64,000 nt of DNA, taken from assembly GCA_963662655.2 (NCBI GenBank), contig CAXXTU010000002.1, forward strand, positions 1,920,001 through 1,984,000, written 5' to 3'. How positions within the stretch are numbered: the stretch's first letter is position 1; every line of letters begins with the position of its first letter. Positions 48,908 to 52,587 of this stretch are shown here, in pieces. The stretch comes from Candidatus Cloacimonadales bacterium. Lineage in GTDB: Bacteria; Cloacimonadota; Cloacimonadia; Cloacimonadales; JAIOQZ01. The notes under the pieces are model-generated. The model searched no databases, was not told the DNA's origin, and saw nothing but the letters and a program-made list of their open reading frames with translations. A program made the position numbers and the translations under genes.

Positions 48908-49002
48908 CGGGAGGATGGATCTGGTGGTCCGGCTGGTCTGCAAAGCCAGTAGTGGGCGGATAAAACCGTCCGTGGCAGGTTCGATTCCTGCCCTCTCAGC
49001 CA
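48908..49002 (+). tRNA. selC: tRNA-Sec-type tRNA (7/5 fold) with GCA (Cys) anticodon
   Basis: Acceptor CGGGAGG/CCTCTCA, D arm TGGATC-TGGT-GGTCCG, anticodon arm GCTGGT-CTGCAAA-GCCAGT, 8-bp variable arm, T arm GCAGG-TTCGATT-CCTGC, G73-CCA. Directly upstream of selA-selB. Confidence 0.92.
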
Positions 49003-49031
49003 TTTTTCAACACTCAAACCAGGCGATGCGT

Positions 49032-50429
49032 ATGAAACAGGAAGAATTGAGAAAAATCCCCGGGGTCGATAAACTACTTACAGAACCATCCATCCAGAAT
49101 CTGGTACCGCAATTCGGTTTACCCATGGTGACGCAAGCGATCAGGCATATTCTGGATCAGGCGCGGCAGACCATCCTCGATGGCGGGAATGCCTCCAATC
49201 CCGAGACGTTGATCCGGGAGACAGAAGCGTTTTGCAAGCAAGCCGTTAAGCCATCGTTGATTCCCGTTATCAACGCGACGGGCGTGGTCATTCACACCAA
49301 TCTGGGCCGGGCACCTCTTGGCGAGTACGTTCTGCAGGAACTCACCCCCATCATCAAAGGGTACTCCAATCTCGAATACGACTTGTCCCAGGGAAAGCGC
49401 GGCAAGAGAGAGAGCCACATATCCAGGCTTCTGCGACAAGTGACGGAAGCGGAAGACGCGGTGGTCGTCAACAACAACGCTGCGGGACTCATGCTGAGCC
49501 TTAAAACGCTGGCCGAAGATAAGGAAGTGATCGTCTCTCGCGGCGAGCTGATCGAAATCGGCGGATCGTTCCGTCTGCCGGACATCATGGCCGCGAGCGG
49601 AGCGAAGATGGTTGAAGTCGGAACCACCAACAGGACGCGTATCAGCGATTACGAAAACGCGATCACTGATGATACTCGCGTGCTTCTCAAGGCACATCGT
49701 TCGAATTATTACATCGGGGGATTCACCGAGGAAGCGGAACTGGATGAGCTGGTCTCGCTAGCGAAGAAGCACAACCTTATTTTCATCTACGATATCGGCT
49801 CCGGCCTTTTGCGGAAACCGGAAGGACTTCCCCTTCAGAAAGAGCCGGATATCCTCAGCGCCATCAAGGCCGGTGTGGATATCGTCTGTTTCAGCGGCGA
49901 CAAGCTTCTGGGAGGCCCACAGGCGGGAATCATCGCCGGGAAACATGAATATGTCGGAAAAATCGCCAAAGCGCCCATGATGCGCGCGCTCCGCACGGGT
50001 AAAATGACGCTCGCGGCGCTCTCCGCAGTTATCCGGTGCTACATGGACGACGAAGCGCTGAAAATGAAACTCCCGCTTTTCCGCATGCTGAACCGTTCGC
50101 TGGAAGAGCTGCAACAAAACGCCGAATTTTTCACCCAAAAGCTTGCAGAGAAAGGCATCGCTTGCGAAATCGTGGCGAGCACCGCTTTTTGCGGCGGCGG
50201 AACCCTTCCCCATCTCGGCATTCCGAGCGTGGCGATAAATATCATTCCGCCAAGCCATAGTAAAACATGGGCTGAAGAAACGTGGTCGGCACTCATGCAA
50301 TCGGAGACGCCTGTCGTGGGCATATTGCGAGAAGGAAAGCTGCTTTTCGAGCTCTACACTTTGCAGACGGACGATTTTGACACCATCGCGAACGCTCTGG
50401 CCAAGATAAAGGATTGTACCTGCCCATGA
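49032..50429 (+). CDS. selA: L-seryl-tRNA(Sec) selenium transferase
   Basis: INATGVVIHTNLGRAPL, VVNNNAA, SRGELIEIGGSFR, EVGTTNRT and FSGDKLLGGPQAG (PLP lysine). Start at 49032 or 49026. Confidence 0.97.
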   Translation: MKQEELRKIPGVDKLLTEPSIQNLVPQFGLPMVTQAIRHILDQARQTILDGGNASNPETLIRETEAFCKQAVKPSLIPVINATGVVIHTNLGRAPLGEYVLQELTPIIKGYSNLEYDLSQGKRGKRESHISRLLRQVTEAEDAVVVNNNAAGLMLSLKTLAEDKEVIVSRGELIEIGGSFRLPDIMAASGAKMVEVGTTNRTRISDYENAITDDTRVLLKAHRSNYYIGGFTEEAELDELVSLAKKHNLIFIYDIGSGLLRKPEGLPLQKEPDILSAIKAGVDIVCFSGDKLLGGPQAGIIAGKHEYVGKIAKAPMMRALRTGKMTLAALSAVIRCYMDDEALKMKLPLFRMLNRSLEELQQNAEFFTQKLAEKGIACEIVASTAFCGGGTLPHLGIPSVAINIIPPSHSKTWAEETWSALMQSETPVVGILREGKLLFELYTLQTDDFDTIANALAKIKDCTCP

Positions 50430-52372
50430 AACACCTGATAATGGGAACCGCCGGTCATATCGACCACGGGAAAACAACGCTCATCGAGCAGCTCACCGGC
50501 TTCAACTGCGACACACACAAAGAAGAACAACTCCGCGGAATCACTATTCACCTCGGATTCAGCCACCTCGATCTTCCCGGTGGGAACAGCCTGGGGATCG
50601 TGGATGTACCTGGACACGCGGATTTCGTCAACACGATGGTCTCCGGCTCCAGCGGAATCGATTTCGTTCTTTTAGTTATCGCAGCCGACAGCGGCGTTAT
50701 GCCTCAAACGCGTGAGCATCTGCAAATCATTCAAACACTCGGAATCACGCACGGGATTATCGCGCTCACCAAGACCGATCTCGTTGACAACGAGCTTCTT
50801 GAATTCGCTGAAATCGATATCAGGGAGCTTGTGGAAGACACAAATCTCGAGGATGCGCCAATCGTCAAAGTGTCGGCAAGAACCGGGGATGGTATTCCAG
50901 ACTTGATTCAGGCAATCGACGAAATGTCCGAGATCGTGACTGAGAGAGGCAGGGGCGAAATTTTCAGGATGTTCGTGGATCGCATCTTCAACATCGCCGG
51001 GCATGGGACTGTTGTTACCGGCTCTGTGATCAGCGGCGAACTAAATCGCTCGGCCAATACCTATTTACTGCCTGTTGGCGAGAAACTTCGCGCCCGGCGA
51101 CTCGAACGTCACGGCAAGGAAGTCCAGAATATTTCCACTGGCGATCGCGCTTCGATAAACCTGGTGGGACTCGACATCGATCAATACAAGCGCGGTATGA
51201 TGGTCAGCGATCGCATTCTGCCCTCCACAACCATGATCGACGCGCGCCTGAAGCTTTATAAGCATGCCAGGCATCTCGGGCTGTGGTCGCAGGTGATCTT
51301 CTTGCTCGGTACATACACGGGACAGGCACGCATTCATCTGATCGACAAGGACAGGCTGGACGGCGGCGAAGAGGCCATCGTCCAGATACACCTCGATTCC
51401 CCTGCAGTCATCATGCACGGGGACCGTTTCGTGATCCGCAACACCTCCAGCGATCTCACGCTCGGCGGTGGCGAGGTGATAGACGCCCATCCGCTGCACC
51501 ATCGCAGAAGACCGGAAGACCTCGTTCAGAAACTGCACGAAGTCGCCCAGGGCGGGCTCCCCGAGCTTATCGCAACGGAAGTTCGCAAAAGGATAGCGCC
51601 CATCACCGGCGGCGAGCTTGCCGATCTCCTCAACTGCGCGGAGCGAGAGATCGAGAAAGCCGTCGCAGGAGAAATGCCCGAGGACATCGTAGTTCACACG
51701 ACGAAGACATCTGTCTATCTGTTGAGGCGAAGCAGGTATGACAAGCTTCGGTTGAAGATACTACGCTACCTCAATACCTACCACAAGCGAAATCCCCTGG
51801 ATGAGGGAGGTCGGCCATTCGAAGAATTGATGGGGATTTTCGGCGTCCACCGCGATTCAACAACGGAAGCCGTTATGCAGCTCATCCTCGAGCAGCTCGA
51901 TGTCGAAAAAGCAATCAAGCGAGTTGGACACACCTGGGCGCTGTTCGATCACAACGTGAAGCTGACGCCTCGTGACGTCGAGCAGATCGATTTTATCGAT
52001 AAGTACCTGCTTGATTCGCAGATGCACACACCGCTGTGGTCGGAACTGATACCCGATGCTCTCAATAAGGGTATTAGCGAGCTCAAGCTCAAGCAGATTC
52101 TGCAGTTGCTTGTTTTCAAAAACAAAGCCTACAATCTCGACGGAAATTTCATCCATGCGGATATCGTGGACAACAGCAGAAGAACATTGCTTCAATACCT
52201 CACCGAGCACGAAGAGGGCGCTTCTGTCGCAACCTTCAGAGACCTCATCGACGGCAACAGAAAGATTTGCCTGCTTCTGATCAACAAATTCGATCGCGAA
52301 GGAATTACCGTCCGCAAAGGCGACTATCGTACAATTACGCAGCGCGGCAGAGATATACTCGATCCAGCATAG
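50426..52372 (+). CDS. selB: Selenocysteine-specific elongation factor
   Basis: GTAGHIDHGKT, RGITIHLGF, DVPGH, MPQTREHL and a C-terminal winged-helix region FRDL..GNRK....LL..FDREGIT.RKGDYR. ATGA overlap with selA. Confidence 0.96.
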   Translation: MKHLIMGTAGHIDHGKTTLIEQLTGFNCDTHKEEQLRGITIHLGFSHLDLPGGNSLGIVDVPGHADFVNTMVSGSSGIDFVLLVIAADSGVMPQTREHLQIIQTLGITHGIIALTKTDLVDNELLEFAEIDIRELVEDTNLEDAPIVKVSARTGDGIPDLIQAIDEMSEIVTERGRGEIFRMFVDRIFNIAGHGTVVTGSVISGELNRSANTYLLPVGEKLRARRLERHGKEVQNISTGDRASINLVGLDIDQYKRGMMVSDRILPSTTMIDARLKLYKHARHLGLWSQVIFLLGTYTGQARIHLIDKDRLDGGEEAIVQIHLDSPAVIMHGDRFVIRNTSSDLTLGGGEVIDAHPLHHRRRPEDLVQKLHEVAQGGLPELIATEVRKRIAPITGGELADLLNCAEREIEKAVAGEMPEDIVVHTTKTSVYLLRRSRYDKLRLKILRYLNTYHKRNPLDEGGRPFEELMGIFGVHRDSTTEAVMQLILEQLDVEKAIKRVGHTWALFDHNVKLTPRDVEQIDFIDKYLLDSQMHTPLWSELIPDALNKGISELKLKQILQLLVFKNKAYNLDGNFIHADIVDNSRRTLLQYLTEHEEGASVATFRDLIDGNRKICLLLINKFDREGITVRKGDYRTITQRGRDILDPA

Positions 52373-52432
52373 ACTTTACTTTTTTTGCTACTCTGATTCA
52401 ACTTCACACCCTCTTTGCGCGCTCATGAACGA

Positions 52433-52550
52433 GCGCGGCGGGGCGGCGTAGGAAGCGAAGGCTTCCTGAGAACGTATTCGACTCCTTTCAGACAATAGAA
52501 GAACCCGAATACGTTCTCGTGCGCGGAGCGCACACGCCGCCCCGCCGCGC
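52433..52550 (+). repeat. Four-way-junction repeat, family 2, copy 2
   Basis: 17-bp closing stem GCGCGGCGGGGCGGCGT/ACGCCGCCCCGCCGCGC enclosing three abutting hairpins. Confidence 0.8.
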
Positions 52551-52587
52551 GTGGGTGATCTCGAGATTGCAAGCGGGACATCGTAGC

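Follow-up and report, generated by a model that had tools for sequence, protein, structure and literature searches.

A selenocysteine tRNA with a cysteine anticodon in Cloacimonadota and its probable use at hairpin-marked cysteine codons

What does a bacterium do with a selenocysteine (Sec) tRNA whose anticodon reads cysteine codons? This question is raised by the selC-selA-selB genes of a Candidatus Cloacimonadales bacterium, which lie in a 64,000-nucleotide (nt) stretch of contig CAXXTU010000002.1 (assembly GCA_963662655.2, positions 1,920,001 to 1,984,000). We call this whole stretch the window and the source genome G000 (3.81 Mb, 2 contigs, 98.95% complete). Window coordinates refer to the stretch, and C2 coordinates refer to the whole contig, beyond the window. 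A sequence-only reading had proposed that Sec is inserted at UGC and UGU codons marked by a Sec insertion sequence (SECIS), with Cys as a fallback. Our comparison of genomes favors, with a probability of about 0.86, a working Sec-insertion system that would have exchanged UGA for SECIS-marked Cys codons, mostly UGC. The parts of this system, the codon switch, the conservation of hairpins, and a codon bias are all observed. The tRNA has these features in the window:

48908 to 49002, plus strand: selC, a tRNA-Sec with encoded CCA and a Cloacimonetes-type 7/5 fold (RF01852, 54.5 bits)
48940 to 48942, plus strand: GCA anticodon, matching UGC by Watson-Crick pairing and UGU by wobble
48999, plus strand: G73 discriminator of the Ser/Sec type, not the U73 of tRNA-Cys or tRNA-ReC (G in 22/22 GCA and 14/14 UCA genes)

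The 95-nt selC gene has the anticodon loop CT-GCA-AA, a 6-bp D stem with a 4-nt loop, a 6-bp anticodon stem, and a long variable arm. In a genome-wide search, it was the sole match in G000 above the cut-off of the Rfam tRNA-Sec model RF01852 (gathering score, 47), and no second, UCA-type tRNA-Sec was found there. The hallmarks that the sequence-only reading had listed (D stem, anticodon stem, variable arm, and G73, with GCA at 48940 to 48942) all hold. The acceptor/T branch refines that description because it is 7/5 rather than 8/5, with six pairs plus a C1/A72 mismatch and a one-nt acceptor/D linker. A canonical bacterial tRNA-Sec has a UCA anticodon and a 13-bp 8/5 branch, and selC departs from it in both respects. 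ARAGORN labels selC a tRNA-Cys, which is a miscall; a canonical tRNA-Cys(GCA) is present elsewhere in G000. Upstream of selC, a scan for promoters gave no site.

Might GCA reflect an error of sequencing or assembly at 48940? Two runs of one sample, which is probably the source sample and so not independent, yielded Logan contigs that span this position with 0 differences. Contigs with T at 48940 in the same runs carried 13 to 16 differences and were set aside as tRNAs of other organisms. In a panel of 41 relatives, 32 carry a tRNA-Sec (18 GCA only, 10 UCA only, and 4 both), and GCA is present in 22 of the 36 genes. We also surveyed 232 genomes of the phylum with a pattern open at the anticodon, counting anticodons by hand. 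It matched 106 genomes and 111 genes (26 GCA and 85 TCA), with GCA tRNA-Sec in 26 genomes from 7 families. This recurrence, together with the matching contigs, refutes an error, the chance of which is negligible, and the G at 48940 is genuine. The GCA pattern was present in 23 named records, all 23 from Cloacimonadota, which places the host in this phylum; the pattern, modeled on this type of tRNA, would pass over a GCA tRNA-Sec from other phyla. It was also present on 23 metagenome contigs.

The two genes that follow selC encode the next parts of the system:

49026 to 50429, plus strand: selA, selenocysteine synthase (PF03841 and PF12390; TIGR00474, 547 bits, cut-off 267.9)
50426 to 52372, plus strand: selB, Sec-specific elongation factor (TIGR00475, 322 bits, cut-off 242.25; PF09107 wing-3)

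Both pass their TIGRFAM cut-offs, in agreement with the claim that they are intact. selA is single copy in G000 and starts at 49026 or 49032. Its TGA stop overlaps the selB start, and TGA also ends 966 of 2,933 script-called genes in G000; the sequence-only reading had noted TGA as a normal stop elsewhere in the window. In an alignment read by hand, SelB F45, D185, R186, H229, and R241 align with the aminoacyl-pocket positions described for Aquifex aeolicus SelB (PMC4605307; this and other PMC sources are cited from partial text). Judged from its sequence, SelB has an intact aminoacyl pocket and winged-helix end. No second selB was found in G000 at its 98.95% completeness. selD, which had been noted as missing from the window, is indeed absent there, and G000 has two copies elsewhere. 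There was no match over the cut-off for selU or yqeB in G000, so SelD has no other known use. A NifS-SelD fusion (C2 993555 to 995747; locus L009) has a plain Cys without a hairpin, and the hairpin-bearing SelD is encoded elsewhere; the fusion could supply selenophosphate without needing Sec.

An explanation other than Sec is that the tRNA is charged with Cys, or that SelA makes Cys, and that SelB delivers Cys at marked codons. GCA is an identity element for cysteinyl-tRNA synthetase (CysRS), and the selC* tRNAs, or tRNA-ReC, are Sec-like in shape (PMC5389517, PMC7609411). They resemble selC in shape, in their GCA, and in being handled by SelB (Mukai 2017, PMC5389517; Vargas-Rodriguez 2018). 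However, they need U73, whereas all 22 GCA genes here have G73. Their cargo is Cys, and they decode UGA in genomes that also have a normal Sec system; selC, the only tRNA-Sec of its genome, would target Cys codons, which is the opposite direction. Neither the canonical UCA system nor the UGA selenoproteins that accompany selC* were found in G000, although a UCA tRNA is present in 4 of the 22 GCA genomes. Finally, Cys delivered to a Cys codon would leave selA, two selD genes, and hairpins unexplained. We consider a Cys carrier highly unlikely.

If the tRNA is a Sec tRNA for Cys codons, codon and anticodon should change together. We read Sec-homologous sites in five protein groups: SelD, FdhA, Omp28-related UxxC proteins, CxxU proteins, and a CxxU-G-x-T-P-P (TPP) family. 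The 18 GCA-only genomes have TGC or TGT at 63/63 sites, and the 10 UCA-only genomes have TGA at 36/37. Genomes with both tRNAs have 19 TGC/TGT and 3 TGA, all three in one genome (G015). These counts omit a second SelD of G040 (TGA, missed by the pattern), a partial FdhA of G034, and unfetched Omp28 matches, whose stop column has the same split. In the TPP family, TGA is at the site in 9/9 UCA genomes. Therefore, the codon follows the anticodon across genomes. In three UCA genomes, MvhD is a selenoprotein encoded with UGA; the Hdr/Mvh clusters of G040, G011, and G035 (L185 to L187) have three UGA-type MvhD genes each.

The same counts bear on whether the GCA tRNA instead reads UGA by G34:A wobble, serving undetected UGA selenoproteins and leaving the Cys sites ordinary. 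A GCA-type tRNA-ReC has been reported to decode UGA with SelB (PMC11415595, PMC13582414), and the Sec machinery can wobble (PMC3834832). However, TGA is at 0/63 sites in GCA-only genomes, selA itself ends in TGA, and no UGA selenoprotein candidate in G000 passed among 2,181 TGA boundaries, in a scan that a Sec close to the C terminus would escape. Three matches of an earlier run were antisense to real genes and were rejected. UGA wobble is thus extremely improbable. The likely Sec sites of G000 are TGC, so its selenoproteins would resemble ordinary Cys proteins, as had been proposed.

We scored a hairpin when a stem with a GU-containing loop lay 14 to 24 nt downstream of the codon. Of the 63 Cys sites in GCA-only genomes, 48 keep such a SECIS-type hairpin, and one has a stem without GU. 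The predicted signature, a Cys codon followed by a conserved hairpin, is therefore present at Sec-homologous sites. Within families, stems are 94 to 100% paired (for SelD, this covers the KLGP subtype, 10/24 sites), compared with 17 to 65% when the partner is slid by 1 to 3 nt. Changes on both sides of the stem (G-C/U-G/C-G and A-U/G-C) were seen. The rare Arg codon CGG is used at 20/21 sites versus 2.4 expected, and the FdhA Leu codon is CTG at 12/15 versus 2.5 expected; three codons beyond the FdhA stem served as controls, and two of them were under expectation and one was over. This shows that synonymous codon choice builds the hairpin. Protein sequence follows the hairpin as well: SelD has LGPC in GCA genomes versus, for example, LGPG in UGA forms, and Omp28 proteins mostly have ARS versus ARA, ARQ, or ART. 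The hairpin is absent in three Omp28 homologues of a family that lacks Sec genes. We discarded the idea that only GCA genomes have the GU loop, because 18/29 hairpins at TGA sites have GU; the loop is merely more uniform in GCA genomes.

The Sec-site codon itself is also under selection. TGC is used at 58/69 hairpin sites versus 34.9 expected from per-genome Cys usage within the loci collected. Of the two Cys codons in the CxxC motif of Omp28 proteins, the one at the Sec site is TGC in 25/27 and the second in 11/27 (12 expected). This preference fits a GCA anticodon that needs a Watson-Crick codon to compete.

These patterns bear on whether the system is a relic, with Sec lost by Sec-to-Cys conversion, the GCA tRNA, selA, selB, and hairpins as leftovers, and only Cys inserted. 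Sec-to-Cys change is common. By our rule, 14 of the 63 sites lack a hairpin (9 SelD, 3 Omp28, and 2 FdhA). One GCA tRNA (G022 C3 1604030 to 1604118; L049) has an anticodon-stem mismatch and its genome has weak FdhA and SelD hairpins, so that it looks degenerate. The selB of G005 (C274; L282) contains an internal TAG; no tRNA-Sec, selA, or selD was found in this genome of the same family, which is 81% complete. SECIS-like folds also follow Cys codons in Cys-type hydrogenases (PMC13582414, 2026). However, loops of those hydrogenases keep G in about 26% (PMC13582414), whereas GU is present in 48/49 hairpins of GCA-only genomes. The tRNA core is invariant across 22 GCA genes of relatives, and selA is free of stops in 28/28 matches. 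Compensatory hairpin changes, rare-codon choice, and a TGC preference confined to the Sec-site Cys are not what a relic would be expected to show. Therefore, we regard a relic as very unlikely.

What would the recoded tRNA serve in G000? Five sites are likely Sec-at-UGC sites:

C2 853510, minus strand: SelD Cys17
C2 1509819 and C2 1512153, minus strand: two Omp28-related UxxC proteins
C2 3420499, minus strand: a CxxU relative
C2 2369847, plus strand: unnamed CxxU-G-x-T-P-P protein (L181; gene 2369628 to 2372372)

FdhA was not found in the genus of G000. Among the families suggested for inspection, SelD has the marked codon in G000 and FdhA has it only in relatives, and HdrA was rejected. Three of the four non-SelD targets were scanned, and all three have type IX secretion system (T9SS)-type C-terminal domains, so they are probably exported. 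Two target proteins matched NCBIfam NF045500 (Omp28-related selenoprotein) with 52.3 and 38.1 bits, short of the cut-off of 200. They share its UxxC or CxxU motif and TGA in UCA relatives, but they are far under the cut-off, are fused to PKD and T9SS-type tails, and are encoded with TGC. An Atlas search with the TPP domain returned unnamed clusters only, with no Pfam-named cluster among the top matches; the TPP family is a probable undescribed selenoprotein family.

Targets were also picked blind from hairpin scans of G000. One scan gave an Omp28-related gene and a tighter scan gave the TPP gene, and in both cases, UCA orthologues have TGA at that exact codon. Three other picks were rejected: for the HdrA C-terminal cluster, UCA relatives keep Cys; for a C10 peptidase, a stop was present in 0/12 matches and UCA relatives keep Cys; and for the HydA C-terminal domain, there was no stop in the two covering UCA orthologues (G018 and G036). 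Scanning for generic hairpins downstream of Cys codons proved too unspecific (180/12,557). A refined motif, set afterwards and hence circular, gave 7 hairpins among 12,741 Cys codons, 5 of them at validated sites. The scans left one further candidate, at C2 384715.

We infer from these results that Sec is inserted at the marked Cys codons. Known identity rules suggest that seryl-tRNA synthetase would recognize the long arm and G73 of the tRNA and serylate it. SelA, whose gene is intact, would turn Ser into Sec with selenophosphate from SelD. SelB would bind the hairpin, with its GU-containing loop starting 16 to 22 nt past the codon, and would deliver Sec-tRNA(GCA) in competition with elongation factor Tu (EF-Tu) and Cys-tRNA(GCA). 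Unmarked Cys codons would remain Cys, and UGA would remain a stop. When Sec-tRNA is scarce, Cys would be incorporated, giving a full-length protein. Of the original proposal, the signature, the machinery, and the lack of a UCA tRNA-Sec stand as observations; charging, insertion, and the Cys fallback are at the level of prediction. The outcomes that had been listed as refuting it did not appear: the base at 48940 is G, no UCA tRNA-Sec was found in G000, and selD is there twice.

Several observations weigh against this reading. MvhD and the NifS-SelD fusion of G000 are plain Cys forms with no hairpin, 14 of the 63 sites are hairpin-free by our rule, and the system of G022 is possibly decaying. 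G005 and G033, fragmented genomes with selB in which no tRNA-Sec was found, keep the hairpin. Related genomes are not independent, so the site counts are overstated. Because TGC already makes up 81% of Cys codons in the G000 loci counted, the codon-bias signal comes from AT-rich relatives. Only 2/5 blind picks were confirmed and 3/5 failed, so a hairpin alone is weakly specific, and a looser rule found hairpins after Cys codons (28/21,096) at a rate similar to that after control codons (246/251,067).

Four relatives (G001 to G003 and G015) have GCA and UCA tRNAs with two SelBs and a single selA. Their second module is a UCA tRNA-Sec divergent from its own selB:

G001, C1 1971720 to 1973662
G002, C1 10832 to 12791
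G003, C4 73482 to 74775
G015, C92 7597 to 9703

G015 has targets for both codes, with UGA in SelD and two Omp28-related genes and UGC in FdhA. G001 to G003 belong to the same genus as G000; where they have the second module, G000 has a stretch of about 430 bp that includes a repeat element. Their second SelB is short (about 600 amino acids) and on a long branch. No UGA client of the second tRNA was found in G001 to G003 among matches to SelD, Omp28, TPP, MvhD, and AhpC-TSA, nor among those to Thioredoxin_3, Pyr_redox_2, and rhodanese or in one pattern search, nor in 1.2 of the 3.9 Mb of G001 (31%). A GrdB search gave no signal in any control and carries no weight. The second module of these three genomes may be idle.

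How often did the switch occur? In a quick SelB tree without an outgroup, 18 GCA-linked proteins form one group (Shimodaira-Hasegawa-like approximate likelihood ratio test, 89), which also includes two UCA and two unlabeled genomes. The anticodon label changes 2 times on this tree versus 10.7 in shuffles; quick tRNA and SelA trees were weakly resolved. The GCA switch may, on this tree, have a single origin. A broader scenario is tentative, and we put it somewhat below even odds. A deep Cloacimonadales branch would have exchanged UGA for UGC throughout its selenoproteome, exported thioredoxin-like proteins and the unnamed family included, in a single switch that was then inherited. Hairpins would have tightened to a GU pentaloop even at amino acid cost, and some genomes would run two Sec codes, each with its own tRNA and SelB.

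Mukai et al. in 2016 (Angew Chem 55:5337) reportedly found an Aeromonas salmonicida tRNA-Sec with a Cys anticodon and named the "Cloacimonetes type" tRNA-Sec. The use of Sec at Cys codons through an anticodon variant in A. salmonicida is described in several sources (PMC11415595, PMC10778597, PMC10573291, PMC8124441), although reviews disagree on whether the pair is GCA/UGC or ACA/UGU. Our case shares with it a tRNA-Sec that reads a Cys codon, a predicted SECIS-directed Sec at a sense codon, and a 12-bp acceptor/T branch, and G000 has intact selA, selB, and selD and a Cys codon plus SECIS at 5 sites. It differs in its phylum, in its spread (26 genomes of 7 families rather than a small species group), in the number of target groups (at least five, with export domains in some), and in GCA with a measured UGC preference. 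The Cloacimonetes type was defined by a 7+5 branch (Santesmasses 2017, PMC5330540); selC shares this branch, the missing nt between acceptor and D stems, G73, and the phylum, and the partial text of that paper gives no anticodon. Mukai 2016 or its supplement may well already list this GCA tRNA. Compared with E. coli SelABCD and the fdhF SECIS, the four components are the same, the GGUCU loop of FdhA and Omp28 hairpins also occurs in E. coli-type SECIS (PMC3834832), and the spacing is within the 16- to 37-nt consensus (PMC13188914). However, the competitor here would be Cys-tRNA with EF-Tu, not release factor 2, and failure would give a Cys protein, not truncation. We found no literature tying GCA tRNA-Sec or UGC selenoproteins to Cloacimonadota, in a search outside of which most subscription papers fell. 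The principle of Sec at Cys codons is already in print, as is the Cloacimonetes-type tRNA-Sec; what is added here is the breadth, statistical signs of use, hidden and probably exported targets, and two-code genomes. The breadth and the two-code state are unreported.

Two other features were noted in G000. A GC-rich palindromic element after selB (window 52416 to 52560) is predicted to form a single long hairpin (-91 kcal/mol). The genome contains 61 copies of its 12-base core, and BLAST with the element gives 53 pieces; it resembles repetitive extragenic palindromic sequences or miniature inverted-repeat transposable elements. ARAGORN also called a tRNA-Leu with an AAG anticodon at C2 264211 to 264298; A34 is unusual in bacteria other than in tRNA-Arg.

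If Sec is inserted as proposed, a sense codon would have two meanings that depend on mRNA context, stably and across a whole lineage. Surveys based on in-frame UGA would score such genomes as having Sec machinery and no client. In one survey pipeline, selC means UCA tRNAs only and tRNA-ReC means U73 tRNAs (PMC13582414), so a G73 GCA tRNA belongs to neither class. With UCA and GCA genomes paired, it would be possible to test Sec-Cys competition at one codon, the advantage of a Cys fallback, and the spread of a code change. The short-branch tRNA, SelA, and SelB may also be natural parts for placing Sec at sense codons.

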